The position numbers were made by a program, and so were the translations under genes. Below, piece by piece: positions 4,144 through 32,731 of a stretch of DNA of 64,000 nucleotides (position 1 is its first letter; every line of letters starts with the position of its first letter). The notes beneath the pieces are model-generated. The model did not search any database, was not told where the DNA came from, and saw only the letters and a list, made by a program, of their open reading frames with translations. Source of the stretch: an uncultured Gammaproteobacteria bacterium (GTDB taxonomy: Bacteria > Patescibacteriota > Microgenomatia > Daviesbacterales > UBA10151); assembly GCA_964446685.1 (NCBI GenBank), contig CAYUPO010000001.1:38912-102911 (forward strand), read 5' to 3'.

Positions 4144-6348
4144 ATGAAAATACACGGACTCTCATTGGTAATCTTTTCGCATAATCATTTTGATTCTCTC
4201 CCTGCTCTTTTAGAACAGATCGATAAATCTCTGTTAAGTAAAGGCCTGCCTTATGAGGTGATCTTAATGGATAAAGCTGAGGCCTCTGAAGACCAAACTG
4301 TTATTCGGAATTTATCTTCAAGCTATCCACTGACACACTCTAACCAACATCATGGTCAGTCAAAGTCGGCTCAACTGATAAAGACTTTTTCTAAAACCAA
4401 GTATGATCTGATCGGAATTTTAGATCTACCTCTGGGATATTCAGCAGATATTATTCCGGAAATGATAAAGAAGCTGGAAAATGATCAGGCGGATATTATG
4501 ATTGTCCATCGCAATAAAATGAGCTGGTCAAGCCGGTTTTTTGGTGTTCTGGCTGATGGAGCAAATTATGATATTCATTCAGGGCTTAAAATTTTTAAAA
4601 AGGAGATTGTTGAGAGACTCTATCCTCATTTTTCCCCGATCTCATTTGATCTGGAATTTTTGGCCAAAGCAGCGGATGCTGGGTATGTATTGGAGAAATT
4701 TGATGTTGAAGTGGAACATTCCTCCCTGGTCCCCAAAAAATCACATGATTCTTTCTGGAAGCTGACTCTGTCACATTTTCTGGTTCGTTATCTTCGGTCT
4801 GATGTAATCCCTTTTCATCCGGATACAGTAGCGGCCAAAGGCAAAGGGTTTCATTACAAAGGACAGGAATTTGTCCATCATTCAAATTTAAAACCTTCAC
4901 AAAGTGCAATTCATCGACTGTCTGGAATGCAGATGTTTATTTTGCTGGGCATTTTGGTCGAAGTTGTGATCTTCTTTATTATTAACTGGCATGTGGCGCT
5001 AGTAATTCTGATCGCCATGCTGACTTGTTTATATTTTGCTGATTTATTGTTTAATCTGTTTTTGATTTACCGAAGCTTTTCCAAGCCAGCTGAAGTTCAG
5101 ATCGAGCAGTCGGAGATTGATGATGTAAATGACTGGCCGACTTATACTATTTTATGTCCGCTCTATAAAGAATGGCAGGTGGTACCGCAATTTGTGACCG
5201 CCATGAGTCATCTGGATTACCCCAAAAGCAAGCTACAGGTGATGCTGCTTTTAGAAGAAGATGACAAAGACACTATCAAAGAGATCAACAATTATGATCT
5301 GCCCTCCTATTTTCAGACAGTGATCGTGCCAGATTCCAAACCAAAAACCAAACCAAAAGCTTCAAATTACGGACTTTTACAAGCTACCGGAGAATACATT
5401 GTTATATATGATGCCGAAGATGTGCCAGATCCATTACAGTTGAAAAAAGCAGTTGTCGCTTTTAGAAAATCCGGTCGGAGAATTAAATGCATTCAGGCAA
5501 AACTAAATTTTTACAATCCGCATCAGAATTTATTAACCCGAGTTTTTACTGCTGAATACTCACTTTGGTTTGATCTGGTTTTGACCGGACTGCAGTCAAT
5601 TCATGCCCCGATTCCTCTGGGTGGTACATCTAATCATTTTAGAAAAGCCGACCTGGTCAAATTAAATGGCTGGGATTCTTTTAACGTGACCGAAGACTGC
5701 GATCTGGGGATGCGACTGGTGAAAGCCGGTTTTCAGACAGCTGTCATCAACTCCACTACACTTGAGGAAGCTAACAGTGATATGGCCAACTGGTTTAGCC
5801 AGCGGACCAGATGGATTAAAGGTTACATGCAAACTTATCTGATCCATATGCGGGATCCTCACCAGTTTTTGAAAAACTGGCGCGAACCTCACGCTATAAC
5901 TTTTCAGTTGGTAGTGGGAGGAAAAGTGTTGTCGATGTTTATCAATCCGCTGATGTGGGTGATTACTTTAATGTATTTTATGTTTAGAGCCAATATCGGC
6001 ACATTTATCGAATCATTCTTCCCGGCTCCTGTTTTGTACATGGGTGTCATCTCTCTGCTGCTGGGTAACTTTTTGTATATCTACTATTACATGATCGGCT
6101 GTGCCAAACACGGACATCATGAACTAGTCAAATACGGCGTTTTTATTCCTTTCTACTGGCTGGCGATGAGTGTGGCCGCCTGGATGGCTTTTTATAAACT
6201 AATTGTGGCTCCTCACTACTGGGCCAAAACCAAACATGGACTTCACTTGAATAATGCCAAAGCTGTAAACCATGCCAGTCAGGCAATCGGCCAGCAAAGT
6301 CTGGTTGATAAAGATCTCACACATGTCCGTTTAAATCCGGCTATTTAA
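4144..6348 (+). CDS. Dual-domain family-2 glycosyltransferase: N-terminal degenerate GT2-like region plus C-terminal processive beta-glycan synthase domain (NodC/HAS/CesA/PgaC type) with TM helices
   Basis: C-terminal half carries D,D,D,QxxRW signature set: YDAEDVPD, VTEDCDLGMRL, QRTRWIKG. Several TM helices between and after domains (FILLGILVEVVIFFIINW...; LMWVITLMYFMF...). Confidence 0.7.
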   Translation: MKIHGLSLVIFSHNHFDSLPALLEQIDKSLLSKGLPYEVILMDKAEASEDQTVIRNLSSSYPLTHSNQHHGQSKSAQLIKTFSKTKYDLIGILDLPLGYSADIIPEMIKKLENDQADIMIVHRNKMSWSSRFFGVLADGANYDIHSGLKIFKKEIVERLYPHFSPISFDLEFLAKAADAGYVLEKFDVEVEHSSLVPKKSHDSFWKLTLSHFLVRYLRSDVIPFHPDTVAAKGKGFHYKGQEFVHHSNLKPSQSAIHRLSGMQMFILLGILVEVVIFFIINWHVALVILIAMLTCLYFADLLFNLFLIYRSFSKPAEVQIEQSEIDDVNDWPTYTILCPLYKEWQVVPQFVTAMSHLDYPKSKLQVMLLLEEDDKDTIKEINNYDLPSYFQTVIVPDSKPKTKPKASNYGLLQATGEYIVIYDAEDVPDPLQLKKAVVAFRKSGRRIKCIQAKLNFYNPHQNLLTRVFTAEYSLWFDLVLTGLQSIHAPIPLGGTSNHFRKADLVKLNGWDSFNVTEDCDLGMRLVKAGFQTAVINSTTLEEANSDMANWFSQRTRWIKGYMQTYLIHMRDPHQFLKNWREPHAITFQLVVGGKVLSMFINPLMWVITLMYFMFRANIGTFIESFFPAPVLYMGVISLLLGNFLYIYYYMIGCAKHGHHELVKYGVFIPFYWLAMSVAAWMAFYKLIVAPHYWAKTKHGLHLNNAKAVNHASQAIGQQSLVDKDLTHVRLNPAI

Positions 6349-6384
6349 AAATTTTAAAGCAGGTGCTTTAGTCTTTTAGCTCTT

Positions 6385-7665
6385 ATGAAAATAAATAATT
6401 CCTCAGTTTTAATATCAGGCACTACCCTGGCGTTTGCAGTGATGTCAGCCAATGTGATTAATCTTTTTTTTAATGCTTATTTAGGCCGGGTTATTTCCTC
6501 AGAAGAATTTGGTGTATTGGCTTTGATTAATACATTTATGTATTTTGGGTCACTTTTTTATAACGCTGTTGGAGGTATTACCAACCGGGAAGTAGCTTTT
6601 CTGGATAAGGATTTATCAAATCAGGAAGGAACAGTTTTTTTTCTTTCCCTGACCAAACAGTTAATGATCGTCAACTGTGTCCTGGCCATAATTTGGATTC
6701 TGTTGGTCCCTTTTTCAAGCAGCTTTTTTCATATCAGTGACCCGACAATTTTTTATCTGTTTACTCCCCTATTTATTTTGTATCCCCTGGCTTTTTTGGG
6801 CAGAGGGTACTTACAGGGAAAACTACTATTTGTGCTAGCTGGTGTAACTATTTTTATTGAGCCGCTAATCAAATTACTCAGTGCTTATTTTTTGCTGGCT
6901 TTTGGAATGCATCAGATGATTTATCTCTCAATATATATTTCAGCTCTACTGACTGGAATAATCACTTTTTATCTGGCCTGGAAAAGAAAACCGGCACTCT
7001 CCCAAATTTCCAGTGTCCCTTTTCCATTTACTTTTTTTGGAGCAGCCTTACTCTCTGGTATCTCAACCATCTCTTTTCTGGCACTGGATATGATCTTGGT
7101 GAAACATTACCTGCCACCTGATCTGGCCGGACAATATGCATTTTTGTCCTTGCTGGGGAAAATTATTTTCTTTGCTGGATCGCTGCTAAATGTTTTTACT
7201 ATTTCACTAGTCAGCCGCGAGGCCAGTCATCAGAAAAATCCTTTTGTCTCTTTTTATCTGCTCCTTTTAGGAAGTTTTGTGTTAGCAGCTAGTGGAGTGA
7301 TCGTTTTTGGAGTATTTGGTTATTTTTCAATCCCTCTTATTTTTACTGAAAAAGCCAGTGTTGTGGTTCCTTTTGCACTGCCATATCTTATTGCAATTGC
7401 TCTTTTTACTCTGGGTAACACCATCGTCACTTATCATCTGGCACTTAAACAATATCTCTTTGCTGTTCTAAGTGTGATCATGTCAGTATTTTTAATTGGA
7501 GGCATCATTATTTATCACACAACTATTACAGATGTTGTTTATACTCTACTGTTAGTAAGCATATTTTATAGTCTGGTTTTGGCTCTGGCTCATATCAGAC
7601 AAAACTTTTTCTCACCACGTGTTGCACTAACATCACTGGAAAAAATATCCGAGGAGGTCATATGA
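6385..7665 (+). CDS. Polytopic membrane protein, Wzx/MATE-like oligosaccharide flippase family
   Basis: 426 aa, about 12-14 predicted TM helices, no soluble domain. Stop overlaps start of next GT2 gene (7662/7665). Context is a glycan locus. Confidence 0.45.
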   Translation: MKINNSSVLISGTTLAFAVMSANVINLFFNAYLGRVISSEEFGVLALINTFMYFGSLFYNAVGGITNREVAFLDKDLSNQEGTVFFLSLTKQLMIVNCVLAIIWILLVPFSSSFFHISDPTIFYLFTPLFILYPLAFLGRGYLQGKLLFVLAGVTIFIEPLIKLLSAYFLLAFGMHQMIYLSIYISALLTGIITFYLAWKRKPALSQISSVPFPFTFFGAALLSGISTISFLALDMILVKHYLPPDLAGQYAFLSLLGKIIFFAGSLLNVFTISLVSREASHQKNPFVSFYLLLLGSFVLAASGVIVFGVFGYFSIPLIFTEKASVVVPFALPYLIAIALFTLGNTIVTYHLALKQYLFAVLSVIMSVFLIGGIIIYHTTITDVVYTLLLVSIFYSLVLALAHIRQNFFSPRVALTSLEKISEEVI

Positions 7666-8570
7666 CAGAAAAAACATCCGTCTCTATTTGCGTGCCCGCC
7701 TACAATGAAGAAAAAAATATTGAAAAAATATTGCTCGCTCTGTTAGCTCAGAAAACGAATAAAATAGCTATCAATAAAATAGTGGTCGTCTCCTCTGCCA
7801 GTACTGACAAAACAGATGACATTGTAAAAAAATATACTACTGAATATCCGCAGGTAATACTGATCCAGCAGAAAAAAAGAGAAGGCAAAGCTGCAGCTAT
7901 TAATGCCTTTTTAAAAATCACCACTGACCCTTTAATCGTCATCGAAAGCGCTGATACTATTCCCCAGCCAAATACCATCGAACACCTCTGTCTGCCCTTT
8001 TTACGCGACCAGAATATCGGCATGACAGGCGGCGCCCCGATCCCGGTCAATGATCCAAAAACTTTTTTGGGATACATCATCCATACCTGGTGGTGGTTTC
8101 ACCGCAATATCCCCCGTTTTGGAGAGATTATTGCCTGTCGAAACATCATCGAAGCCATCTCCCAAACCACCGCCGTTGATGAAGCCTACATCCAGGCCAA
8201 GATGATCCAGATGAATTTGAAAGCCGTCCATGTCGATGAAGCGATCGTTTTTAACAAAGGTGCAGAAACTGTAAAAGATCTAATTAAACAGCGAAGAAGA
8301 GTTTTTAATGGTCATGCCCGACTTTTAAATAAAGAAAATATTAAAATAGATAATATGACTAAATCAACTTTAAAACTTTTACTTTTTAAATTTCCGATTA
8401 ACAATTTTAAAGAATTAGTATGGTTGGGTTGTGGAATTTTAATTGAGTTATATTCTCAATTGCTAGGTATGTATGATTTGAAAATAAATAAGAAAAATCC
8501 ATTTATTTGGGATACTGCCAAAACAACAAAAAATTTAAAAAAGAAAAGAGCTTATGATTTTATTTCTTAA
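7662..8570 (+). CDS. GT2 family glycosyltransferase (3' ~250 bp compositionally different, possibly mosaic)
   Basis: N-terminal SICVPAYNEEKNIEKILLALLAQ. GAGGAGG Shine-Dalgarno at ~7651-7657. GC drops sharply from ~42% to <25% near 8320. Confidence 0.65.
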   Translation: MTEKTSVSICVPAYNEEKNIEKILLALLAQKTNKIAINKIVVVSSASTDKTDDIVKKYTTEYPQVILIQQKKREGKAAAINAFLKITTDPLIVIESADTIPQPNTIEHLCLPFLRDQNIGMTGGAPIPVNDPKTFLGYIIHTWWWFHRNIPRFGEIIACRNIIEAISQTTAVDEAYIQAKMIQMNLKAVHVDEAIVFNKGAETVKDLIKQRRRVFNGHARLLNKENIKIDNMTKSTLKLLLFKFPINNFKELVWLGCGILIELYSQLLGMYDLKINKKNPFIWDTAKTTKNLKKKRAYDFIS

Positions 8571-8583
8571 TTAACTAAATTAT

Positions 8584-9528
8584 ATGATTTCAATAATTAT
8601 TCCGGTAAAAGGTCATCGTATCATTGATAGATTATTAACTAAACTTTCAGAAATCCCAAAACCAGAAGATACTGAGATATTAGTTATAGATGCAGCAAAA
8701 GGGACCCTTAATGATATTAAAAATAAATTTCCTCTGGTTCGATGGTTATATTATAAATCTAATTATAAACAATCAATATCTGAGCAAAGAAATTTTGGCT
8801 TACTTAAGTCTAAAGGAGATATTATTGTTTTCATTGATGCTGATTGTATTCCGACAAATTCTTGGTTATTAAATTTGATAAACCCAATAAGAAAAGACAA
8901 TGAATCGGTAACCTCCGGTAAAATTATTTCAATGTCTAAGTATCCTTTAAAATGGAAGTTTGATTATGAACTTCTTAAATCAACCCGATACTTACTTTTT
9001 ATTCCAACCATGAATTCTGCATTTTTAAAAAGAGTTTTTAATCAAATTGGAGGATTTGATAATATTTTTAAATATGGAGGTGAAGATGGGGATATTAGCA
9101 TTAGATTACATGAACAAGGATTTAAAATTCGTTATGTACACAATGCAGAAATTTATCATGACTGGGGCGATATAAATAAAAACATCAAGCGAATATTTCT
9201 ATACGGAAGAGCCAACTTTGTTTTAATTTTCAAACACAAATATAAACTTTTTAAATATATAAATTTAATTGAAGTTTCTGCATTTCCCATTTATTTATTT
9301 TTTTTACCAATTACATTATTTTGGCCACTATACTTACTGTTTCTGATTATCCCTTTTTTTAAAGGATTAATTAAAAGTTATTCACTTACTTATGCTCTTG
9401 AGAGTGTTGTTTATGGTTTGTTAATGGGTTCTGGATTTATATTTCAATTTGTTAATTCCTTATTTTTGCCCAAACAAATACAAACTGTTCCTTTAATTAA
9501 AGTATCAAATATTTCACACAAAATATGA
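8584..9528 (+). CDS. GT2 family glycosyltransferase with C-terminal TM helices
   Basis: ISIIIPVKGH... and DxD-like FIDADCIP. C-terminal hydrophobic segments. Very AT-rich coding. Confidence 0.6.
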   Translation: MISIIIPVKGHRIIDRLLTKLSEIPKPEDTEILVIDAAKGTLNDIKNKFPLVRWLYYKSNYKQSISEQRNFGLLKSKGDIIVFIDADCIPTNSWLLNLINPIRKDNESVTSGKIISMSKYPLKWKFDYELLKSTRYLLFIPTMNSAFLKRVFNQIGGFDNIFKYGGEDGDISIRLHEQGFKIRYVHNAEIYHDWGDINKNIKRIFLYGRANFVLIFKHKYKLFKYINLIEVSAFPIYLFFLPITLFWPLYLLFLIIPFFKGLIKSYSLTYALESVVYGLLMGSGFIFQFVNSLFLPKQIQTVPLIKVSNISHKI

Positions 9529-10790
9529 AAAAAATCGTTCTTTTATCCGTTTATGGTGACAAAAATATAGGGGATGCTGCCATATTACAATCCTCACTTA
9601 AAATAATTGATAAATCTATTGATAGACTTTCAGAATTAACTATTTTTTGCGCTGATCCCAAATTCCTAACATTACCCAAATTAAATAGGCTGAAAATAAA
9701 TATCGCTCAAAAACCTTATGGTTATGCTATTCGTCATAAAGGACATTTTTATTCTGAAATATTAAAAATATTTTATTTTATCGAAATCTTCTTTTTTTCA
9801 GGAGTTTATTATGCTTTAGGTAAAATAAATCTAAAATTCTTACCTGATGCAGGATTTTATTCATATATTGGGATTATTCAAAGAGCCGACAGTGTTTTTA
9901 GCATCGGTGGCGGATATCTTAGAACAAAAAGTAAATATAAGGACTATTTCGGTTTATTGCTTACATTACTTCCTATAATTATTGCAAAAAAATTTAAAAA
10001 AAAGATCATATTTTTACCTATGTCATTTGGCAATTTTGCATCAAGTATCCATGCTAAGTTAAGTTTCAATGCAATAAAGGATTCTGTTTTATATATACGA
10101 GACGAAATTAGTCTTAAAACATTGAATAACATGTCTCCTAATTATACTTTAAACATTACTACAAGCCCTGATCTTGCATTATATATGAATTTTGAAGAAG
10201 CAAATTTAGCAAAAAAAATGCGTAGTAAATACATTGTCATGACTGCTAGAGTTTGGTTTAGTAATAGAAAAAAACAGGCATATTACGAAAACTCACTCAA
10301 ACTGTTAATCGAATTTTTATGGGATTCATTTCAAATTAAAACTATTTTTATACCAATGACATGGAATCAGAATGAAGATAATGATGAAGAAGTAGCTATA
10401 AGAATTCAAAAAAAATTATCCAATAGGAAAAGTTTTGAAATACTGAATGCAAAACATCCTTCAGAAGTATTAGAAATCTTAAGTAAAGCTTATTTTTCTG
10501 TTTGTACTCGAATGCATTCCGCGATTCTTTCTTCAGTAGTCAAAACACCATTCATATGTATTGAGTATGAATATAAAACATCAGGATTTCTTAAATTAAT
10601 GAATTTATCAAAGTGGAATATAAATATAAATAATGTAACTTTTGATTTATTAAAAGATAAAGTCTTAAAACTAAAAAAAGAGAAAAATTATTCTAAAATT
10701 CATAAACTGCTAAAAACTAAACATACGCAATTTAAAAAAGAAGAAGACAAACTTATAGAAATGCTTAATAAACAACTGAAAACTATATGA
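9525..10790 (+). CDS. Polysaccharide pyruvyl transferase-like (CsaB/WcaK family) protein
   Basis: N-terminus KKIVLLSVYGDKNIGDAAILQSS matches the PS_pyruv_trans start motif (...G.YG..N.GD.A.L). 421 aa. Start/stop overlaps with neighbours. Confidence 0.45.
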   Translation: MKKIVLLSVYGDKNIGDAAILQSSLKIIDKSIDRLSELTIFCADPKFLTLPKLNRLKINIAQKPYGYAIRHKGHFYSEILKIFYFIEIFFFSGVYYALGKINLKFLPDAGFYSYIGIIQRADSVFSIGGGYLRTKSKYKDYFGLLLTLLPIIIAKKFKKKIIFLPMSFGNFASSIHAKLSFNAIKDSVLYIRDEISLKTLNNMSPNYTLNITTSPDLALYMNFEEANLAKKMRSKYIVMTARVWFSNRKKQAYYENSLKLLIEFLWDSFQIKTIFIPMTWNQNEDNDEEVAIRIQKKLSNRKSFEILNAKHPSEVLEILSKAYFSVCTRMHSAILSSVVKTPFICIEYEYKTSGFLKLMNLSKWNININNVTFDLLKDKVLKLKKEKNYSKIHKLLKTKHTQFKKEEDKLIEMLNKQLKTI

Positions 10791-11599
10791 ATAATCCATT
10801 AGTAACAATAATTATGTCAGCTTATAATGATGAAAAGTATATACATTCTGCGATTGAAAGTATTATTAATCAAACATATAAAAACTGGAAACTGATATTA
10901 ATAAATGACGACTCTTCCGATAACACCGAGGCGGTCATCAAACCTTTTTTAAAAAATACAAATAGGATCAACTACATTAAGAATAAAAAGACTAATGGAT
11001 TAATTACAAACCTCAACTACGCGTTGGATTTGGCAGATGGCAAATACATAGCAAGATTAGATAGTGATGATATCTGGATTGATTCTGAGAAATTAAATGA
11101 TCAAGTAAATTATTTAGAAAATCATAAGGATTACGTTTTGACAGGTACGTGGGGATTTAAAATCTCATCAGATGAAACGCCGAAAGCTCCAATAATGTAT
11201 CCTGTTACTGATAAGAAAATTCATAACTATTTTTTAATTGAGAATTGTTTCATTCATAGTAGTGTGCTTATACGAAAAAGCACATTAGATAAAGTCGGAT
11301 TTTATGATCCTGAATTTCCATCTGCTGAAGATTATGGTCTCTGGGTAAAACTTGGAACGTCTGGGAAATTATATAATTTACCAAAATATATGACAGGTTA
11401 TAGAGTAAATCCTAAGGGTATAAGCTATAATAAATATGCTGAACAAATATCAAGTTCAATAAAAATTGTAAACAAATTTAAAGATTATTACCCTTTTTAT
11501 ACAATTGGTCTATTATTATGGTATGTGCGCAAGTTTTTTCCAAGAGATTTAAGAGAGGCGCTCTCAAGAAATTTTCGTTCACGTTTTGTATCTAAGTAG
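10787..11599 (+). CDS. GT2 family glycosyltransferase
   Basis: VTIIMSAYNDEKYIHSAIESIINQTYKNWKLILINDDSSDNT, a classic GT2 N-terminus with DxD (RLDSDD). Confidence 0.7.
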   Translation: MNNPLVTIIMSAYNDEKYIHSAIESIINQTYKNWKLILINDDSSDNTEAVIKPFLKNTNRINYIKNKKTNGLITNLNYALDLADGKYIARLDSDDIWIDSEKLNDQVNYLENHKDYVLTGTWGFKISSDETPKAPIMYPVTDKKIHNYFLIENCFIHSSVLIRKSTLDKVGFYDPEFPSAEDYGLWVKLGTSGKLYNLPKYMTGYRVNPKGISYNKYAEQISSSIKIVNKFKDYYPFYTIGLLLWYVRKFFPRDLREALSRNFRSRFVSK

Positions 11600-11602
11600 T
11601 AT

Positions 11603-13183: not shown

Positions 13184-13186
13184 CTT

Positions 13187-14698
13187 ATGAGTCTGGCAAA
13201 TCGTATTTCTGAGAATGGTGTGTTGATTGTTACTTTCTTTCTTTCCTGTGTTGCTCTTTATTTTAGTTTTATTAACAACTATATCCTGACTTACAATGAT
13301 GCAGCTTCTCATTTGAATATTGCCAGGAGAATTTTTGATAATCTGACTCCGGGTATTGCTCAGATTGGGACTGTTTGGTTGCCTTTGCCGCATTTGTTGA
13401 TGTTGCCTTTTGCCTGGAATGACTGGTTGTGGAATACCGGGTTTGCGGGGAGTGTGGTTTCGATGGGGGCTTTTTTGGGGAGTGTTTTTTTTACTTATAA
13501 AACAATTTATCTGGTCAGTAAAAGCTGGGTGGGAGGGATAATTGGGGCTTTGGTGATGGCTTTGAATCCGAATTTTTTGTATATCCAGACAACACCGATG
13601 ACAGAGCCGCTGTTGATCGCTAGCTTTATCATGTCGGTTTATTTTCTGGCTAAATATGTCCAGAACTGGCAGGTGCAATCTTTGCTGATTTCGAGTATTT
13701 TTGTCGCCTGCGCCACCCTGATTCGTTATGACGGCTGGTTTTTGTATGCTTTTCTGACTGCGCTACTGCCAATATGGATCTGGAAGTGGCGAGGGATAAA
13801 AGAAGCTGAGAGTAGTGTGATTTTGTTTTTGTTTATGGGTGGATTTGGGATTGTGACCTGGGTGGTGTGGAACTGGATGATTTTTGGAGATCCGCTTTAT
13901 TTTATTACTGGACCTTACTCGGCTTATGCTCAGCAGAGAGTTTTGAGTCAGGTCGGGCAGCTGCCGACTGAGGGAAATATTTATAACGCTGTTTTGTATT
14001 ATTTTTGGGCGGTTGTCAGTAATAATGGGATGATTTTATTTTTTAGTTCAGCGTTAAGTCTGCTGATTATCCCTTTTTTTGTAAAGCAGAAAAAGTTTTT
14101 AATTCTTTTTATGGCGGCTTTTTCACCAATTTTATTTAATGTAATTGCTTTATTTGTTGGTCAGTCGGCAATGAATGTGCCACAGGCCCCAACAAATCCA
14201 GGAATGTTTAATATCCGCTACGGGATGATGGCGTTGCCTTTTATTGCTTTGAGTCTGGGAATATTAGCTTCAGATAAATGGATGAGATTTCTGGTGATAT
14301 TTGTTTTGCTGCTGCAAAGTTGGGTGTTTTTTAAAGAAGGAATTCCTGTTTCACTGGCGGATGGTATTCATGGTAGAGAGCAGACTTATTATACTGTTGA
14401 AGCCAGTAAATGGCTGAGAGAAAATTATACCGGTGGTCTGATACTGACTAGTCTGGCTTCACATGATGCATTTGTAGCGAGAACTCAGCTGCCGATGAAA
14501 AATTATATTCATGAAGGGACTCAGGATCATTGGTATGACGCTCTGCATGATCCGTCTGAGGAAGTAGAATATATCGCCACCCTATCTTTTCCGCCAGATA
14601 GCGTCTATAAACAACTAGCGACCAATCCGACATTTTTGAAAAAGTATAAGATGATTCATAGTTATGAAAAGTTTGGGATTTATAAGAGGATAGACTAG
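13187..14698 (+). CDS. GT-C fold membrane glycosyltransferase (ArnT/PMT-like), paralog 2 (GC-normal copy)
   Basis: NDAASHLNIARRIFDNLTPGIAQIGTVWLPLPHLLMLPFAWNDWLWNTGFAGS aligns with paralog 1 but at ~40% GC versus ~30% for paralog 1. Confidence 0.55.
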   Translation: MSLANRISENGVLIVTFFLSCVALYFSFINNYILTYNDAASHLNIARRIFDNLTPGIAQIGTVWLPLPHLLMLPFAWNDWLWNTGFAGSVVSMGAFLGSVFFTYKTIYLVSKSWVGGIIGALVMALNPNFLYIQTTPMTEPLLIASFIMSVYFLAKYVQNWQVQSLLISSIFVACATLIRYDGWFLYAFLTALLPIWIWKWRGIKEAESSVILFLFMGGFGIVTWVVWNWMIFGDPLYFITGPYSAYAQQRVLSQVGQLPTEGNIYNAVLYYFWAVVSNNGMILFFSSALSLLIIPFFVKQKKFLILFMAAFSPILFNVIALFVGQSAMNVPQAPTNPGMFNIRYGMMALPFIALSLGILASDKWMRFLVIFVLLLQSWVFFKEGIPVSLADGIHGREQTYYTVEASKWLRENYTGGLILTSLASHDAFVARTQLPMKNYIHEGTQDHWYDALHDPSEEVEYIATLSFPPDSVYKQLATNPTFLKKYKMIHSYEKFGIYKRID

Positions 14699-14726
14699 TA
14701 ACTTTTGTTGTTTGTGGCTCCATCAC

Positions 14727-14863
14727 GTCATTTCGAGTGTAACGAGAAATCCCTGCCTCGAGCGAAGTCGAGAGGTCAAGACTAGATGACCAAGCTCCTG
14801 CTTCGTAAAAAGGAACAAACCTGGTTTTAATCATGAGATCTCTCGCTCCTCGCTCGAGATGAC
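14727..14863. mobile_element. MITE-like GC-rich palindromic element, copy 1 (termini gtcatttcgag ... ctcgagatgac)
   Basis: gtcatttcgagtgtaacgagaaatc...ggttttaatcatgagatctctcgctcctcgctcgagatgac. Same termini at 32619-32708 and 21469-21618 (inverted). Locally ~55% GC in a ~35% GC genome. Confidence 0.6.
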
Positions 14864-14889
14864 ATAGAAATAATTAATATAAAAGCTTT

Positions 14890-16215
14890 ATGAGAAGACA
14901 CGATAATACTACGCAAAAAAAACTGACATCTGTTTTAACATTTATTCTGGTTTTGATTATTCTGCCGGTGGTTTTTGGGACGGTCTTTTCCAGTCAGTCT
15001 GAAAATACTTCTGGACTGTCTACCCCTGTTGTACAGACCTCTCCCTGCATCTGGCAGATCTGTTCGATTGATACCATGAAAACTTCCCGTGATCTGGCCA
15101 GAACCCATTTAAACAATCCGGCATATGATAGTGAAATCCAAAACCAGCTGCGTCTGATTAAACAAACCGGCGCTTCCTATGTCTCGATCACCACTCCCTA
15201 TGATGAGGAATTCAGACCCTATCTAAAAAGGTGGGTCACACTAGCCAGACAGGAGGGCTTAAAGGTCTGGTTTCGGGGCAACTGGTCATCCTGGGAAGGA
15301 TGGTTTGGATATCCCAAAGATATGTCACCTGAACAACATCTGATAAAAAATTCACAATTTATTACCAGTAACACAGCTTTATTTCAAAACGGTGATATTT
15401 TTGATCCCTGTCCGGAATGTGAGAACGCTGCCTTCTGGCCGCAGGACGCGAAAAATCAGGATTATCGCAACTTTTTGCAGACTCAGCAAAAGCAAACCAA
15501 AGAAGACTTTAAAAAAATTAACAAACAGGTAAGGGTTTTACCATCAGTAATTGGTGGAAGAGCCAAAGATGTTTTGGATAAACAATCTTTTGATAGTCTG
15601 GATAAAATCATCAGTATCGATCATTACATCAAACAACCACAGGGAATGGCTGAATATGTTGATTATTTTGATAAAAAGTTTGATACCAAAGTATTGGTCA
15701 GTGAATTTGGAGCACCAATTCCGGATATGAACGGACCGATGGATGAAAAACAACAGGCTGCATTTATCAAAAGTATTTTAGAGACTTTGTATAAAAAAGG
15801 TGACAAAGTGGTCGGATTAAATTACTGGGTTTTATCTGAAGGGACAACTATGCTGGTAAACAATGATGGCTCAACCAGACTGGCCTATGACATAGTAAAG
15901 CAGTATTTTAATCCATCTGTTGTGGAGGGCAGAGTGACTGATTCACTGGATCAGGGAGTGTCAGGGCTGGTGGTAAAAACAACGGATAATGCCTCTGTCA
16001 CAAAAACTAATGAAAATGGCTATTTCCAGCTGCATATTCCACCCCGGAAATTTGAAATAGTAGTTGATGATCCATCTTTTTATTCACAAACAGCTTCACT
16101 TACGACAACTACCAGTGGAGAAAAAATTTCCTATAATTTTTTTGTGGCACCTAAGAATCCGGGAATCTGGTATAAATTAAAACTGTTCTGGAAGAATACC
16201 ATCCACAAAAGCTAG
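14890..16215 (+). CDS. Secreted putative TIM-barrel glycoside hydrolase (GH5-like) with C-terminal carboxypeptidase-regulatory-like (CarboxypepD_reg) domain
   Basis: N-terminal TM/signal. Candidate nucleophile motif LVSEFGAP. C-terminal EGRVTDSLDQGVSGLVVKTTDNASVTKTNENGYFQL resembles the CarboxypepD_reg beta-sandwich. Family assignment tentative. Confidence 0.35.
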   Translation: MRRHDNTTQKKLTSVLTFILVLIILPVVFGTVFSSQSENTSGLSTPVVQTSPCIWQICSIDTMKTSRDLARTHLNNPAYDSEIQNQLRLIKQTGASYVSITTPYDEEFRPYLKRWVTLARQEGLKVWFRGNWSSWEGWFGYPKDMSPEQHLIKNSQFITSNTALFQNGDIFDPCPECENAAFWPQDAKNQDYRNFLQTQQKQTKEDFKKINKQVRVLPSVIGGRAKDVLDKQSFDSLDKIISIDHYIKQPQGMAEYVDYFDKKFDTKVLVSEFGAPIPDMNGPMDEKQQAAFIKSILETLYKKGDKVVGLNYWVLSEGTTMLVNNDGSTRLAYDIVKQYFNPSVVEGRVTDSLDQGVSGLVVKTTDNASVTKTNENGYFQLHIPPRKFEIVVDDPSFYSQTASLTTTTSGEKISYNFFVAPKNPGIWYKLKLFWKNTIHKS

Positions 16216-16230
16216 CTTTTTTTTAAAAAT

Positions 16231-17799
16231 ATGTCCCCCTCTTTCAAATTATTGGTGATCCGAAGCGTGATGTGGCTAAGTTTTTTGGCCTTAATAGGAT
16301 ATATCTATCAGGACAATTTATTAACCTGGTTTAAAACAACTCCTCAGGAATCGGAGAAAGCGAAATTTGCCCGGACACCTTTTGTTAGCGTTGTTGGTAC
16401 AAAACTGTATCTGGAGGGAGAGGAATACCGTTTTACAGGTGTTAATGCTTATCATCTGGCCACTTTAAACGGAGCTAATGCCGGCTGTGGCGGACAGGAA
16501 AATGATCTGACTGGTTTTATGTCAAAACTGCGGCCTTTTTCTGTGATCAGACTGTGGGCATTTCAGGGAGGACAGGCTACCAATGTCACAACCAGACAGA
16601 TCGACTGGTCTGGAATTGACCGGGTGGTGAACTCAGCCCAGCAGAATAATATTAAACTAATACTGACGCTAGCAGATCAATCCGGCACCTGTGATGATGG
16701 CCATTGGAAAGATTTAAGCTGGTATCTGGGTGGATATAAAAAGCCGGTAAATGATTTAAACAACGGCCTGACTCCTCTGTCTTATTTAGACTATGTGAAG
16801 TTGATTGTCTCCAGTTACAAAGACTCCACTGCTATTGCGATGTGGGAAATGATTAATGAACCGGAAGCTTCTGACTGCCCGGCAGGCTTTAAAGGTTCTG
16901 CCTGTTACCAAAAACAGATTTGCCCGGATGAGCAAAAAGCTACCAAAGCCATGCGTAGTTTTTTTGACACTGTGGGGGGAACAATTAAATCAATTGATAA
17001 AAACCATCTGATCAGCTCCGGACTTTTGGGAGACGGACAATGCGGAGCAGTCTGGGAAGATTATCAGTATCTGCATCAAAGTGACATGATAGATGTAGCC
17101 AGCTACCATGATTATCAAAGAGACAATGAACCATTTCCAGGAGATCAGTGGAATGGTCTGCAAAAAAGACTGGATCAGATGAAACAGATTAATAAACCAC
17201 TAATTATTGGTGAAGTCGGAATAAAAGCAGCAAATAATTCATCAGAATGTGTCAGTCTGACAGTCCGCAAAGATAAATTTAAAGCTAAAATGGATGCCCA
17301 GTTTGCAGCAGGTATCGCTGGATTTCTTCCCTGGTCTTTTACAAACGGAAAAACAGTTAACTGTAACTACGATATTATAGATGATGATCCGGTATTGAAA
17401 CTGCTTAATGATTACCCATTAAGCCAAAGCTCTTTCAATAACCCAGTTCCCTCTTCTCTGCTACAATTTTATACTTTTAGTCCTCTCCCCTCACCACTTA
17501 TTCCCTCTCCTTCTCCAGACATGACTCCTCCGACAGCTCCAACCCTTCTTAAGGCTCTATCTGTTACAGCCACCCAAATTAACTTAAGCTGGAAAGCTTC
17601 AACTGATAATAAAGGCATCATCAGATATGACATCTTCCGCAATGGCAGCTATCTGACATCAACCGATCAAACCAGTTTTAATAATACTGGTCTGACGCCC
17701 TCCACTTCCTATTCCTATCAGGTAAAAGGGAAAGATGAAGCAGCAAATAATTCACCTGCTTCAAATACTTTAAATATAACTACTCTTACTCTTAATTAG
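16231..17799 (+). CDS. Secreted GH5-family glycoside hydrolase (mannanase/cellulase-like) with Pro-rich linker and C-terminal fibronectin type III domain
   Basis: GH5 acid/base motif MWEMINEPEAS and nucleophile IIGEVGIK. Linker SPLPSPLIPSPSPDMTPPTAPT. FN3-like LSVTATQINLSWKASTDNKGIIRYDIFRNGSYL. Confidence 0.6.
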   Translation: MSPSFKLLVIRSVMWLSFLALIGYIYQDNLLTWFKTTPQESEKAKFARTPFVSVVGTKLYLEGEEYRFTGVNAYHLATLNGANAGCGGQENDLTGFMSKLRPFSVIRLWAFQGGQATNVTTRQIDWSGIDRVVNSAQQNNIKLILTLADQSGTCDDGHWKDLSWYLGGYKKPVNDLNNGLTPLSYLDYVKLIVSSYKDSTAIAMWEMINEPEASDCPAGFKGSACYQKQICPDEQKATKAMRSFFDTVGGTIKSIDKNHLISSGLLGDGQCGAVWEDYQYLHQSDMIDVASYHDYQRDNEPFPGDQWNGLQKRLDQMKQINKPLIIGEVGIKAANNSSECVSLTVRKDKFKAKMDAQFAAGIAGFLPWSFTNGKTVNCNYDIIDDDPVLKLLNDYPLSQSSFNNPVPSSLLQFYTFSPLPSPLIPSPSPDMTPPTAPTLLKALSVTATQINLSWKASTDNKGIIRYDIFRNGSYLTSTDQTSFNNTGLTPSTSYSYQVKGKDEAANNSPASNTLNITTLTLN

Positions 17800-17857
17800 T
17801 TTTATATAGTAATGTTAATGTTTTGCTTTCTTACAACTTTCTGATACGATAACCACG

Positions 17858-18667
17858 ATGAATTTTGAAACCCTTCAAAAAGGAATCTACAGTTTAGTCA
17901 TGAGTGTGAGTGTTACATTAGGTTCTACTCTTCTCCCCCCCTCTCCTTCTTCACCCTCTCAAAATGCCCTGCAGGATCCTGGAGTAATTGAATCTTTTAA
18001 TGTACCAGCTGAAAATTCGCTGGACAATTACAATATCGAAATCCCAACAGCAATTGCGTCTTCTGAGGAAACCACACCCTCTCCCCTGCCTGAAGTCAAA
18101 GTGCTGGGTACTGAACATAAAATTTTAGCCTCAGAAATTGTTGAAGAAGCTACAAAAGCCGCAATAGTCACTGTCGAACTACCTGCCAAACCTCAAAAAA
18201 AGCTTGTTAAAGCAGATGAAAAAGCAAAAATAGAGCCCAAAGCAGAAAGCCCAAAAAAAGAGGAATCTGAAGTAGCCAAAGAAACCCCCTCTTCTGTTCC
18301 GGTAATTCAGAAACTGGCAGCAAATGCCGAAAAACTGTTTGAAATGGCCAATCAACATCGGAAAGAGTTAGGTCTGGCTCCATTTGAGAAAGAGGAAAAA
18401 ATTTGCAAAATTGCTGAAACAAGAGCTCCACAGGTCCATGATGAGGTATTTGTCGAAGGACCGCTACACAAAGGCTTTAAAGCTTTAAACCTGCCTTACT
18501 GGGCAACTGAAAATATAGCTGCTTATTCCACTATTGAACAAAATTTTAAATTCTGGATCACTGATGCAATTCATAAAAAAGCGGTTGAAGGACCTTCCAA
18601 ATATAGCTGTATTGCCTGCTCCGGCACCTCCTGCTCCCAAATATTCACCAGCTTTATTCCAAAATAA
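17858..18667 (+). CDS. Secreted CAP/SCP/PR-1 (YkwD-like) domain protein with Pro/Lys/Glu-rich low-complexity N-terminal region
   Basis: C-terminal ANQHRKELGLAPFEKEE...HDEVFVEGPLHKGFKALNLPYWATENIAAYS...FKFWITDAIHKKAVEGP matches CAP domain signatures. Signal-like N-terminus. Confidence 0.5.
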   Translation: MNFETLQKGIYSLVMSVSVTLGSTLLPPSPSSPSQNALQDPGVIESFNVPAENSLDNYNIEIPTAIASSEETTPSPLPEVKVLGTEHKILASEIVEEATKAAIVTVELPAKPQKKLVKADEKAKIEPKAESPKKEESEVAKETPSSVPVIQKLAANAEKLFEMANQHRKELGLAPFEKEEKICKIAETRAPQVHDEVFVEGPLHKGFKALNLPYWATENIAAYSTIEQNFKFWITDAIHKKAVEGPSKYSCIACSGTSCSQIFTSFIPK

Positions 18668-18720
18668 TACAACTACTCTTGTCATCCAACTTATAGTTAT
18701 ATATACTGCTTTTTTGCATT

Positions 18721-20274
18721 ATGAAACATATCACTTTAGGGCGGATGCTCTTTTTTTATTTTCTGATAATTTACGCCTCTTTAAGTTATATCTTTGCTTT
18801 GGTGCTGGAAATTTATCATAACGATGCCATTTCCCGAACTGCTTTGGCTTTTTTTACAATTTTTGGCCGCGATCCTCATTTGGCGGCAATCGGTTTTGTC
18901 TGGCAACCATTACCAAGTTTGCTTCAAATCCCTTTTTTACTGCTGTTTAAATCAATCGGCTTAATGCTTTTGTCAGGACCCCTTGTGACCTCTCTTGCGG
19001 GAGCATTTTCAGTGGCAATCGTCTATAAAATTGGCCGGATCTTACTAAATAAGCAAAGCAAAATTTTGGCTTTAGTTGTGGCCATTTTATTTGGTCTAAA
19101 CCCGATGATTATTTTATATTCGATTGTTGGAACCAGTGAGATGATTTTTATGACCTGCCTACTGCTATCTTCTTATTATTTAATTCGCTATTTTTACCGG
19201 CATGATCAGGCCGGACTATTGCTGGCCAGTCTGGCCATGGCTGCTTCCTTTTGGTCACGCTATGAAGCTCTGCCGGCATTTGCCGGATCCGTCGGAGTAA
19301 TTAGTTTACACTTATTGATCCATAAAAATAATTTTAAAAAGATTGAATCCGTGGTTTTGCAATATAGTCTGCCATTTTTTTATTCAGTCTTAATCTGGAT
19401 ACTAGCTAACTGGCTGATTATGAAAGATCCGTTTTACTTTATGAACAGCCCGTACTCAAACGCTTCATTTACCACTATTTTTAAAAATAATCCTGGACTG
19501 TTGGGAAATTCTTATCAGTCACTGGTAAATAGTTTAATATTTGGTTTAGACCGTATTATTTACTTAGCTCCGGTTATTTTTCTGACACCATTAATAGGAA
19601 TTTATTTTATAAAAAAGGCTCATGAAAAACTGGAAGATTTATTGCTATTAGGATTTTTAACTTTTCCTTACCTTGCCATAATTTTTTTTCATGCCTATCA
19701 GTTGTATAAGGGTGAATCTTTTGGCTGGTTGAGATTTTTCATTTATGTTATTCCCTTAGGGGTCTTACTGTCATTTTATTTTATTCGGAAACATTGGCTT
19801 TTAGGGATCGCCACAATAGTGTTGTTAGGGGTAGGAATTTTCAGCAGTTGGTATGCAATTAACGATTCTTCCCTGGGCAGAGAAGAAAGATCGTTTGCTT
19901 TAAAACTGACCGATCCGATGGCTGAAGTTGATTTCTCCCGCACCTATCTTGATCAAAAAAAGGTGGCCCGTGAGATTGATAATTTGCCAGGCAAAGTGCT
20001 GATTGATACTGATAAGGGCTTTGCTGTTCCGATATTTTCCAAAGACCCAAACCGGTTTATTATTACCTCAGATATTGATTATCTGGATATTGTCAAAGAT
20101 TATCCAAACCAGGTCGACTGGGTGATAGTTCCTCAACCAGCTTCAGATGACAGAGGGCAAAATAAGATCTATGAATACTATCCAAAAATCTGGGAGGGGG
20201 ATGCTCCGTCAATAACCTTGCATCAACAGATTGAAGGTTGGAAAATTTATCAGGTCACAAAACCCCAGAGTTAA
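18721..20274 (+). CDS. GT-C fold membrane glycosyltransferase (ArnT/PMT-like), paralog 3
   Basis: NDAISRTALAFFTIFGRDPHLAAIGFVWQPLPSLLQIPFLLLFKSIGLMLLSGPLVTSLAGAF aligns with the loop-1 region of paralogs 1 and 2. Same 12-TM + C-terminal-domain architecture. Confidence 0.55.
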   Translation: MKHITLGRMLFFYFLIIYASLSYIFALVLEIYHNDAISRTALAFFTIFGRDPHLAAIGFVWQPLPSLLQIPFLLLFKSIGLMLLSGPLVTSLAGAFSVAIVYKIGRILLNKQSKILALVVAILFGLNPMIILYSIVGTSEMIFMTCLLLSSYYLIRYFYRHDQAGLLLASLAMAASFWSRYEALPAFAGSVGVISLHLLIHKNNFKKIESVVLQYSLPFFYSVLIWILANWLIMKDPFYFMNSPYSNASFTTIFKNNPGLLGNSYQSLVNSLIFGLDRIIYLAPVIFLTPLIGIYFIKKAHEKLEDLLLLGFLTFPYLAIIFFHAYQLYKGESFGWLRFFIYVIPLGVLLSFYFIRKHWLLGIATIVLLGVGIFSSWYAINDSSLGREERSFALKLTDPMAEVDFSRTYLDQKKVAREIDNLPGKVLIDTDKGFAVPIFSKDPNRFIITSDIDYLDIVKDYPNQVDWVIVPQPASDDRGQNKIYEYYPKIWEGDAPSITLHQQIEGWKIYQVTKPQS

Positions 20275-20342
20275 ATCCATTCAGCTTGATCTTGTGTGGT
20301 ATATTTAATATTACATTTTTTAACACTAAGGATCCAAAAACA

Positions 20343-21440
20343 ATGTCAGATGAAATAGTCACTCAGTTAAAATACATTATTAAAAAAGCAATCCTACTCC
20401 AGTCCAAATTAAATCTGGGAACAAGTATGTTGACTCCCACTAATTTATTGGAGGAAAGGGAGAAATTTTTTGCTTCAGCAGATTATAATCCGGTGTTTGT
20501 TTATAAGAAAAAGAAATTAATGGTCACAGAAGATGATATTGAGCTACTTTTAACAGATTTAAATAACCTGGAAATTGATCAGGATTTAAAAGATTATTTT
20601 TTTAATGCAATTTATAAATTTAAGCTGGTAAAAAAAACAATTGAAGCAATTGGCACTGATAATTTCGCATCATTTTCTAGTCAGCTGTTTAATATCTCCC
20701 AGACTGAAATTGATACTCATCTGAATATGATTCCAGAGCTCAAGTTTAATGAACCATCAAAAAAAGAGTTATGGTCTGCTCTGACAATCAAAAACCATTT
20801 TGAGCAAATTATTATGGAGCGGTATGGTTTGGATGAGGTGAAGATATTACTTGATGAATTTAATCCATTTACCATCAGAGTCAGTAACCAGAAAGTGATA
20901 GTTGGCGGAAAGATTAAAAGGTACTCTCACAACGTTGAGCGTCTGACTGTACATGAAATTGAAAGCCATGTTCTAAGACGCCAGAGTCTGCTTCAGACAA
21001 AAAATGTTTTACACCGATTGTCTTCCTATGATCAGTCTATTTTATATTCGGAAGGACTGGCTGTTTATAACGAGATCACAACCGGAAAGATTACTGAATC
21101 AGCAATGAATATTTATATTAATAGGATGCAGTCTGTAAACCGGATTCATCTGAGTTTTAGAGAAATTTACAACTATCTGATCAATTTTCTTGAACCAAAA
21201 ATTGCCTTTATCATGACTTACCGGGTAAAAAGAGGGATGCGCGATACTTCACAGCCAGGCGGATTTAAAAAAGATGCCTATTATCTGATGGGATATTTTA
21301 GAGTGAAAGAGTTTGTTGATAAAGGTGGAGATATTAAAGATTTATACCGATTTGCATTACCGGAGCTAATTACTTTACTCCGAAAACATAATCTCGCGAG
21401 TACAAAATATACAATTTTGCCCCGCTTTCTTAGTTCATAA
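20343..21440 (+). CDS. DUF1704 family ('QEGLA-motif' protein; MATCAP-like putative metallocarboxypeptidase)
   Basis: HExxxH-type motif VHEIESHVLRRQS and SEGLAV (QEGLA-like) motif. Start refined to ATG at 20343 (aagga ~12 nt upstream); the track start at 20238 overlaps the preceding gene. Confidence 0.45.
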   Translation: MSDEIVTQLKYIIKKAILLQSKLNLGTSMLTPTNLLEEREKFFASADYNPVFVYKKKKLMVTEDDIELLLTDLNNLEIDQDLKDYFFNAIYKFKLVKKTIEAIGTDNFASFSSQLFNISQTEIDTHLNMIPELKFNEPSKKELWSALTIKNHFEQIIMERYGLDEVKILLDEFNPFTIRVSNQKVIVGGKIKRYSHNVERLTVHEIESHVLRRQSLLQTKNVLHRLSSYDQSILYSEGLAVYNEITTGKITESAMNIYINRMQSVNRIHLSFREIYNYLINFLEPKIAFIMTYRVKRGMRDTSQPGGFKKDAYYLMGYFRVKEFVDKGGDIKDLYRFALPELITLLRKHNLASTKYTILPRFLSS

Positions 21441-32708: not shown

Positions 32709-32731
32709 ACTGGGTCTATCTACTATCTAAA

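Follow-up and report, generated by a model that had tools for sequence, protein, structure and literature searches.

The stretch analysed here, a window of 64,000 nucleotides from contig CAYUPO010000001.1, carries between positions 4144 and 20274 a block of 12 co-directional open reading frames (ORFs; O1-O12, all on the plus strand) in which neighbours share 4 bp or lie no more than 59 bp apart, the only exception being a 192-bp gap between O8 and O9. A preceding interpretation made from the letters alone (the sequence-only reading) had described this block as a contiguous surface-glycan locus, and both its gene inventory, with ORFs exactly at the coordinates that it gave, and the assignment as a glycan locus are borne out by the family assignments. 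O1 (4144-6348, 734 amino acids) is a two-domain membrane glycosyltransferase (GT) of family GT2, matched by Pfam Glyco_tranf_2_3 and Glyco_trans_2_3 with ~76 bits each. O2 (6385-7665) is a polytopic membrane protein that, via its homologs, resembles Wzx/MOP-type flippases. O3 (7662-8570), a soluble GT2 of the conserved frame of the locus (Glycos_transf_2, 85 bits), has its best PDB matches in PcManGT (6yv7, E 1e-10) and DPMS (E 4e-6). A first variable cassette (8571-11668) comprises O4 (8584-9528), a GT2 with a C-terminal hydrophobic segment (56 bits), the pyruvyl transferase O5 (9525-10790), and O6 (10787-11599), an EpsE/TuaG-like GT2 (117 bits). The three GT2 enzymes and the pyruvyl-transferase-like protein that had been proposed are thus present. 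O5 reaches 103 bits with PS_pyruv_trans (cutoff 25.3) and 92.8 bits with NCBIfam TIGR03609 (CsaB), which has an equivalog cutoff of 213.1, and by these scores it is a pyruvyl transferase, not a CsaB equivalog. Then follow the GT-C membrane glycosyltransferases O7 (11603-13183), which belongs to a small clade of its own, and O8 (13187-14698), the canonical GT-C of the system; O9 (14890-16215), a membrane-anchored hydrolase predicted to consist of a clan GH-A (beta/alpha)8 barrel and a CarboxypepD_reg beta-sandwich; O10 (16231-17799), an anchored GH5 (glycoside hydrolase family 5) beta-mannanase-like protein with an FN3 domain, which constitutes the second variable cassette (16258-17814); O11 (17858-18667), a secreted protein with a weak CAP-like C-terminus but nothing above noise in Pfam or PDB comparisons; and the distant GT-C paralog O12 (18721-20274).

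These genes are a conserved module and not a one-off locus. In a scan of one genome per species, 80 loci were collected around homologs of the GT-C, mostly from Patescibacteria of many classes, and a recurrent order became apparent: an O1-like gene, an O2-like gene, variable GT2 or GT4 genes that are sometimes accompanied by a pyruvyl transferase, the GT-C gene, and an O9-like hydrolase gene. Where at least 9 kb were available before the GT-C gene (54 loci), an O1-like gene was found in 44 and an O2-like gene in 35, and in 25 of the 54 loci O1 and O2 form a single ORF of 1,400-1,650 codons; these 25 megaproteins combine an intact DPMS-like GT2, a BcsA-like GT2, a Wzx-like region and a C-terminal GT4. 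Where at least 1.5 kb were available after the GT-C gene (70 loci), the O9-like gene lies within 300 bp downstream in 34 and within 6 kb in 44. The GT-C family itself comprises 1,326 cluster representatives (50% identity) at E<=1e-30. Among its 150 best representatives there are at least 10 fusions of a BcsA-like GT2 with the GT-C, at least 12 fusions of the GT-C with an O9-like or GH5 hydrolase, and three that include a DPMS-like domain, one of which joins DPMS-like, BcsA-like and GT-C domains (P0399), while the other two join a DPMS-like domain to the GT-C, one of them adding a GH5. In P0370, an O9-like hydrolase is fused to the GT-C, and P0434 is an example of a synthase joined to the GT-C. 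The Saccharimonadales are represented among the loci by L013, which has the module. It is mainly because of these fusions and adjacencies that we place synthase, flippase, GT-C and hydrolase in one pathway, and we regard the 16-kb block as a Microgenomates/Levyibacteria-like form of a module for the assembly of an envelope glycan, with a wide distribution among Patescibacteria. The individual parts all come from known superfamilies; neither the conserved combination of a BcsA-like synthase, a GT-C and a clan GH-A enzyme nor the GT2-GT2-Wzx-GT4 megaproteins were found described in our literature searches. The exopolysaccharide (EPS) locus SEML1_0079-0083 of Southlakia, a cultured Saccharibacterium in which this locus is important for growth by Tn-seq, was considered as the same system and rejected, as it is a classical system with phosphoglycosyl transferase, Wzy and Wzx.

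Genomes of high GC content (Acidimicrobiales, Actinoplanes, Chloroflexi, Terriglobales and others) have the module reduced to a short BcsA-like GT2 beside the GT-C, and these two-gene pairs have neither a flippase nor a DPMS-like domain. Several pairs of Acidimicrobiales, Terriglobales and Chloroflexi (L060, L065, L067, L070, L072, L077) adjoin giant ORFs of 1,450-1,900 amino acids, and a domain scan of those in L060, L065, L067, L070 and L077 revealed PQQ-like beta-propeller, DUF1349/ConA-like, PKD, Big_9 and cadherin-like domains. These secreted proteins could be substrates or glycan-binding partners, the ORF calls in the high-GC sequences being rough. It was also observed that many contigs of the collection (L001-L080) that carry the patescibacterial module, with low GC and genes of the kind typical of CPR bacteria (Candidate Phyla Radiation), bear the title “uncultured Gammaproteobacteria” or “Pseudomonadales”; such labels of third-party assemblies look unreliable, and several records are evidently mislabelled.

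The hydrolases O9 and O10 each have a single N-terminal membrane anchor that is followed by a hydrolase-like domain. The AlphaFold2 model of O9, calculated with database homologs (mean predicted local distance difference test, pLDDT, 91), consists of the anchor, a (beta/alpha)8 barrel and the CarboxypepD_reg sandwich, and in Foldseek comparisons the barrel matches GH157 (2e-12) and PslG (2.5e-10) and also GH5_18, GH158 and GH113, which all belong to clan GH-A. The glutamates E176 and E178 after strand 4 and E272 at the end of strand 7 (in “SEFG”) are invariant, which would fit an active retaining enzyme. With Glyco_hydro_cc, O9 scores 19.8 bits (cutoff 21); it is a clan GH-A barrel as judged from the modelled structure, and no GH5 assignment is obtained by sequence. 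The only GH5 by sequence is O10 (Cellulase, 35 bits, cutoff 23.5, plus fn3), which resembles GH5 endo-beta-1,4-mannanases (PDB 4awe and 1rh9, E 7.5e-10). The “secreted GH5-type enzymes” of the sequence-only reading have therefore to be narrowed down to O10, with O9 being a clan GH-A barrel by its modelled structure, and both are anchored to the membrane. As an aside, members of the O9 family share a C-P-E-C-E-N stretch (residues 174-179) around the putative acid/base glutamate, with E176 and E178 invariant and the other positions conserved to at least 90%; a pair of cysteines on either side of the catalytic region is not usual in clan GH-A, and a disulfide or a metal site might be formed by them.

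Could these hydrolases simply scavenge environmental or host polysaccharides, with the GT genes stemming from unrelated adjacent pathways? It is usual to count the glycoside hydrolases of CPR towards their capacity for carbon degradation (PMC5581439), O10 belongs to a cassette and is not kept in relatives, and two enzymes of the alpha-amylase family are encoded elsewhere in the window, all of which would agree with such a loose co-location. On the other hand, in many CPR classes, and in about half of all loci, O9 adjoins the GT-C, several proteins contain the two as a fusion, adjacency or fusion is also seen for synthase, flippase and GT-C, and the genes overlap or are tightly packed on one strand. 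We therefore consider a mere co-location very improbable. Enzymes of the O9 type are more plausibly seen as acting on the envelope glycan, and some of the CPR “cellulase/hemicellulase” genes that have been counted as carbon degradation (PMC5581439) may serve the cells' own envelope glycan. They might correspond to the “GH39” that is widely reported from CPR genomes.

The three GT-Cs are homologous to each other, as had been proposed. O7 and O8 align over their full length with 29% identity (E 6e-60), and O7 and O12 over the N-terminal 233 amino acids with 28% identity (E 9e-16). Their sole Pfam match is PMT_2, with 31.1 bits for O7, 18.8 bits for O8 and 28.6 bits for O12, so that O7 and O12 are just above and O8 is below the gathering cutoff of 26.1. 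A profile of the three paralogs found no PDB chain at E<=1, missing ArnT as well as the PMTs, and the “family 39” names of public homologs are automatic annotations. Among the families GT39, GT83, DUF2079 and YfhO that the sequence-only reading had named for comparison, only PMT_2 was matched, and no non-glycosyltransferase family was hit; YfhO and DUF2079 gave no profile match with any of the paralogs, in the case of O8 even at E<=10, and with PMT_2 as the only family reported, membership in either can be ruled out. The fold was recognised by structure comparison: the AlphaFold2 model of O8, built on 30 homologs (pLDDT 89, predicted TM-score 0.90), has about 12 transmembrane helices and matches STT3, DPY19, ALG12, ArnT, PglB, Pmt4, AftA/B and Emb with a Foldseek probability of 1.00. 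We conclude that O7, O8 and O12 are GT-C enzymes that appear PMT_2/ArnT-like; their scores are marginal, and none of the solved structures is closely related.

The first outer loop of these proteins contains a candidate catalytic residue. Asp38 (numbered as in O8) does not vary among 30 diverse homologs, and in the O8 model it lies where the first helix of the outer loop begins (residues 37-51), immediately after the first transmembrane helix (3-29), and the start of the first outer loop is the usual site of the catalytic acid in GT-C enzymes. The corresponding Asp35 is invariant in the O12 clade, together with R39, G58, W61 and P63. The loop-1 motif that had been described as common to the three paralogs, N-D-A-x-S-x-x-N-I-A-R, is exact only in O8; it reads A-D-S-L-S-R-L-N-I-A-R in O7 and N-D-A-I-S-R-T-A-L-A-F in O12. 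What the three do have in common is the core D-x-x-S ... G-x-V-W-x-P-L-P, and this core is kept in the homologs of both clades. Each of the three has orthologs of its own: those of O7 are 53-54% identical and separate from the O8 clade, and the O12 clade is shared with Chloroflexi and Firmicutes proteins annotated as “ArnT family/GT39”, some O12 orthologs bearing a C-terminal LysM domain. By this sequence criterion, the three GT-Cs are old paralogs and not recent duplicates.

As STT3, PglB and Pmt4 are the top fold matches of O8, and as the only Pfam match of the GT-Cs is PMT_2, it has to be asked whether the system glycosylates proteins. In such a scenario, the GTs would build a lipid-linked oligosaccharide starting from a polyprenyl-phosphate sugar, the Wzx-like protein would flip it, and the GT-Cs would act as oligosaccharyl- or mannosyl-transferases onto pilins, the S-layer or further proteins of the surface, in the manner of the Haloferax system with AglJ, AglG/I/E, AglR and AglB or in the actinobacterial Ppm1/Pmt system. 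The Wzx-like protein, the variable GTs, the pyruvyl transferase and the methyltransferase found in a relative do resemble an oligosaccharide assembly, the DPMS-like initiating domain without a phosphoglycosyl transferase recalls the archaeal dolichyl-phosphate pathway, O3, O4 and O6 have weak AglJ/AglG matches, and the giant secreted proteins beside the non-CPR pairs of GT2 and GT-C would be possible substrates. With the archaeal N-glycosylation system (Haloferax AglJ, AglG/I/E, AglP, AglR, AglB), the module shares the DPMS-like GT2, further GT2/GT4 enzymes, a Wzx-like flippase, a GT-C, and a methyl- or other modifying transferase, and neither has a phosphoglycosyl transferase. However, the GT-Cs here are PMT_2/ArnT-like and not of the AglB/STT3 type: a WWDYG-type motif was looked for in O7, O8 and O12 and found in none of them, and the O8 model has only a small C-terminal alpha/beta domain of ~100 residues past the last membrane helix. 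Without WWDYG motif and large C-terminal periplasmic domain, membership in the oligosaccharyltransferases (STT3/PglB/AglB, GT66) is ruled out. In contrast to the archaeal system, the conserved core moreover includes the BcsA-like synthase and the hydrolase, and the repeated fusions of the GT-C to GH domains and to the synthase are hard to account for by protein glycosylation. The module has no conserved candidate acceptor gene, and the LysM fusions point to the wall. The transfer onto pilins or S-layer that the sequence-only reading had put forward finds no backing, as no such genes were recognised in or beside the locus, as the oligosaccharyltransferase features are absent, and as the hydrolase and LysM fusions, which favour a glycan or cell-wall acceptor, lead elsewhere. 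Altogether, protein glycosylation seems unlikely to us.

O1 consists of a DPMS/ArnC-like GT2 domain (residues 1-200) and a BcsA-like synthase domain (~260-700), the latter with two hydrophobic helices before and several after the catalytic part (hydrophobic segments 258-309 and 589-683). The QRTRW motif on which the sequence-only reading had based its assignment is intact (“FSQRTRWIKGY”), and the catalytic positions D374, D423-A-E-D426, T516-E-D518 and Q553-R-T-R-W557 are invariant in 42 family members (the last as Q553-R-x-R-W557). O1 thereby has the motifs of processive membrane GT2 enzymes, D, DxD, TED and Q(R/Q)xRW, in a GT-A domain with transmembrane helices on either side. A profile of the synthase domain matches BcsA of E. 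coli and Rhodobacter with E-values of 3.7e-20 and 9e-17, and the alignment runs from the GT core across QxxRW into the subsequent helices; hyaluronan synthase is matched more weakly than BcsA, and DPMS merely with 5e-3. The N-terminal domain, encoded at 4144-4750, matches DPMS of P. furiosus (5mlz, E 3.5e-7) and also ArnC. Most relatives of O1 retain “IDDHSTD ... DADLQYPPE ... DVQSGLKVF” in this domain, whereas in O1 the metal-binding DAD has become D-L-P and DD has become D-K. An ortholog whose DPMS-like domain is intact is encoded at 8-4696 of L061. The DxD of active polyprenyl-phosphate sugar synthases (DPMS/GtrB/ArnC-like) is therefore missing here. The same decay is found in L001, L041 and L027, and the N-terminal domain is, to judge from these motifs, probably a decayed and inactive copy in this lineage. 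It looks like a pseudo-enzyme domain that is kept within the fusion.

The direct fusions of the synthase to the GT-C, the minimal pairs without flippase and DPMS-like domain in Acidimicrobiales, Actinoplanes, Chloroflexi and Terriglobales, and the triple fusion P0399 also invite another idea: a carrier could be primed by the DPMS-like domain or another GT, the BcsA-like domain could elongate and export the lipid-linked polymer, as in the synthase-dependent O:54 antigen of Salmonella, and the GT-C could then move the chain to an anchor, be it the wall, a membrane lipid or a protein, with the hydrolase setting the chain length. This would account for the lack of a separate ligase or LCP gene. 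To our knowledge, however, BcsA-type synthases do not require a lipid primer, and what CPR conserve in the form of the Wzx-like protein, the GT4 and the variable GT cassettes has no role in the model, which also leaves three GT-C paralogs in one locus unexplained. We thus regard such a synthase-plus-ligase arrangement as rather improbable.

The assignment of O2 as a flippase is indirect. O2 has about 10-12 hydrophobic segments and itself has no Pfam match, even at E<=10. Its full-length homologs at 33-35% identity (33% over O2 residues 1-404) match Polysacc_synt_3 with 45.5 and 33.5 bits (cutoff 23), and because the match is found in these homologs and not in O2 itself, the description as flippase-like holds via the homologs, which suggest that O2 is a divergent Wzx/MOP-type protein.

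The variability of the locus was assessed with the two closest relatives found, L081 and L001, the DNA breakpoints being measured against L081 alone. The O8 protein of L081 is 97% identical and the DNA 78-87% identical; in L001 the GT-C is 72% and the O3 counterpart 77% identical. L081 has the same frame, consisting of MarR, O1, O2 and O3, then O7, O8 and O9, then O11 and O12, and finally MATCAP, RimK and a hydrolase; O11 is also kept in L001, and O12 is absent there. The locus is syntenic in related genomes, and none of the findings that the sequence-only reading had named as refuting it was made. DNA homology to L081 is missing at two places, the cassettes 1 and 2, with breakpoints that coincide with gene boundaries. 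Cassette 1 has a GC content of 0.28-0.29 as compared to about 0.39 in its flanks, which align at 81-84%. In its place, L081 has a GT4, a split pyruvyl transferase and a methyltransferase, and L001 has two GT4 genes. At the position of cassette 2, which here holds O10, L081 has a second flippase (Polysacc_synt) and two GT2 genes, and L001 has three ORFs of no recognised family. O-antigen and capsule loci that vary with serotype show this pattern. In L001, the closest reference genome, a Fic/DOC-family gene with a helix-turn-helix domain (11325-12320) is in addition inserted between the orthologs of O8 and O9.

How could such a set of proteins work together? In the three-component paradigm, a GT2 charges polyprenyl phosphate with a sugar, a flippase exports it, and a GT-C transfers it onto a glycan on the outside (PMC11127046). 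We propose a hybrid of this logic with that of synthases, in which the BcsA-like synthase makes a beta-glycan, the GT-Cs modify it outside via flipped polyprenyl-phosphate-linked sugars, and the hydrolase trims it. The BcsA-like domain of O1 would use a nucleotide sugar to polymerise the beta-linked glycan on the inner side of the membrane, and the chain would probably be passed outward by the transmembrane helices of O1 itself. The soluble GTs O3, O4 and O6 and the pyruvyl transferase O5 would build or modify sugars or short oligosaccharides on the polyprenyl-phosphate carrier, to which, in most other lineages, the intact DPMS-like domain fused to the synthase and the GT4 may contribute; it is in this step, before flipping, that the lipid-linked unit would be elaborated by soluble GTs and by those transferases for pyruvyl or methyl groups that the cassettes encode. 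The Wzx-like O2 would flip these units, and beyond the membrane O7, O8 and O12 could draw on them for the branching, extension or attachment of the glycan, possibly with different donors or at different positions. The anchored retaining O9, and here also the GH5 O10, would then trim or release the polymer, like PslG or BcsZ. Differing cassette genes would result in different glycan structures in related organisms. This scheme accounts for all conserved parts and for all fusion types, and we favour it with a confidence that stays a little short of an even chance. That actinobacterial versions need just a synthase and a GT-C can be explained by the fact that actinobacteria have a housekeeping synthesis of polyprenyl-phosphate-mannose.

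Several observations speak against this hybrid scheme. O1 scores 81.5 bits with CelA (NCBIfam cutoff 699) and 59.5 bits with PgaC (cutoff 422) and is, by these scores, an equivalog of neither. The DPMS-like domain of O1 lacks DxD, and O3, O4 and O6 are not clearly DPMS/GtrB-like; another gene may supply the activity that charges the carrier. No phosphoglycosyl transferase, Wzy, ligase or LCP gene was found in the locus or among the other scanned ORFs of the window, and the scheme leaves the anchoring of the product without explanation. Oligosaccharyltransferases are the best structural matches of the O8 model, though all of its matches have TM-scores of only 0.5-0.58 and identities of 10-12%, and because of these values, with TM-scores of about 0.55 throughout, the ranking of the GT-C families by fold match to the model is uninformative. 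Many soluble GTs together with a Wzx-like protein fit an en-bloc transfer of an oligosaccharide at least as well as the addition of side chains to the product of a synthase, and our literature searches yielded no description of this module in CPR.

It may also be that the system follows a mode of polysaccharide assembly that has so far not been described, in which a cellulose-synthase-like GT2 is coupled, by adjacency or fusion, to a GT-C and a retaining GH-A enzyme, with the main strain-variable surface glycan as product. GT-C and GH-A enzyme would in such a system work on the growing chain, be it as co-polymerase, as branching enzyme or as ligase; the mode would be common in Patescibacteria and would also occur in some Actinomycetota, Chloroflexota and Acidobacteriota, and the glycan would mediate recognition between epibiont and host or by phages. 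We view this as doubtful.

When the hybrid scheme is compared with known systems, it resembles the three-component systems (GtrA/GtrB/Gtr*, ArnC/ArnT, GacI-L, CsbB/YfhO, and ORF12-15 of C. youngae; PMC11127046), in which a GT2 domain resembling polyprenyl-phosphate-sugar synthases, a flippase and a GT-C likewise come together, in which an Asp is conserved in the first outer loop of the GT-C, and for which more than one GT-C per locus is also known (PMC11127046). The difference is that gene order, and in many cases fusion, here links the parts with a BcsA-like synthase, with a GT4 and with a hydrolase of clan GH-A, that the flippase is Wzx-like and not GtrA/SMR-like, and that the DPMS-like domain of the window has no DxD. 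With the synthase-dependent EPS systems (cellulose with BcsA/BcsZ, PgaC, and Psl with PslG), the module shares the membrane GT2 with D, DxD, TED and QxxRW, the profile similarity of O1 to BcsA reaching the helices after QxxRW, and an anchored hydrolase encoded in the operon, the O9 model matching PslG. Unlike these systems, the locus has no BcsB, PilZ, PgaD or outer-membrane parts, the equivalog scores are not reached, and there is a GT-C partner, sometimes fused to the synthase; we know of no synthase system that has such a partner. The scheme can further be likened to the assembly of mycobacterial arabinogalactan and lipoarabinomannan (GlfT2, Ppm1, Emb/Aft/Mpt), where a GT2 makes the backbone and several GT-C paralogs extend and branch it on the outside with polyprenyl-phosphate sugars. 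The extra domains of the mycobacterial GT-Cs are carbohydrate-binding modules that bind the glycan, whereas the extra domains here are catalytic-looking GH-A barrels, the backbone enzyme is BcsA-like, and there is no sequence relationship to Emb or Aft (fold matches with E 1e-3 to 1e-1).

Much of the diversity of bacteria falls to the Patescibacteria, which live attached to other cells and whose surface chemistry is almost unexplored. A module that is conserved in many classes of CPR and has cassettes that differ between close relatives is a strong candidate for the synthesis of a major surface polymer, which could set the specificity for hosts or phages. The fusions, be it GT2-GT2-Wzx-GT4, synthase with GT-C, or GT-C with hydrolase, are evidence of which enzymes cooperate. 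In principle, a glycan block in such a genome is no surprise, yet this one, being concrete, testable and conserved over a wide range, is a candidate for the main glycan on the surface of organisms from a little-understood part of the bacterial tree.

Upstream of the locus, a MarR-family regulator is encoded divergently on the minus strand (3425-3886; Pfam MarR, 56 bits) at the same position as in L081, and it is a candidate regulator of the glycan genes. Scans of the locus for promoters and terminators gave background levels. The gap between O8 and O9 contains a palindromic intergenic repeat element (14715-14865) that we regard as lying outside the pathway. Its 29-bp core GAGATCTCTCGCTCCTCGCTCGAGATGAC occurs in three exact copies in the window, all intergenic, at 14835-14863 (plus), 21718-21746 (minus) and 32680-32708 (plus), with 0 expected by chance, and represents the right arm of a palindromic element of ~90-150 bp at 14715-14865 and 32620-32710. 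The element folds into a long hairpin (z = -2.7), and related copies are found in L081 at corresponding intergenic spots (11601-11654 and 20054-20107). It could belong to a family of miniature inverted-repeat transposable elements, of elements like the repetitive extragenic palindromes, or of terminators; there was no Rfam match for it, nor anywhere else in the window.

Directly after the glycan locus, a MATCAP/DUF1704-type metallopeptidase (20238-21440, plus) and a RimK-like ATP-grasp ligase (21799-22653, minus) are encoded convergently and may be a pair of peptide-tail ligase and peptidase. L081 keeps both at the same site and L001 keeps the peptidase; the TTG start of the metallopeptidase at 20238 overlaps O12, and the start call in L081 implies a shorter protein. 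Further downstream lies a gene for an ATPgrasp_ST protein (32732-34036, minus; 212 bits) with a weak Zn_protease-like C-terminal region, which overlaps the gene of a 7TM_transglut membrane protein (34026-34955, minus). The Pfam descriptions link ATPgrasp_ST (“sugar-transfer associated ATP-grasp”) to 7TM_transglut, a domain of 7 transmembrane helices that is usually fused to an inactive transglutaminase. The two alpha-amylase-family enzymes of the window belong to GH13 (48356-50053, plus, and 50210-51820, minus), and with a major facilitator superfamily transporter nearby (46776-47957) they look like an ordinary system for the use of starch or maltodextrin that has no relation to the glycan locus.

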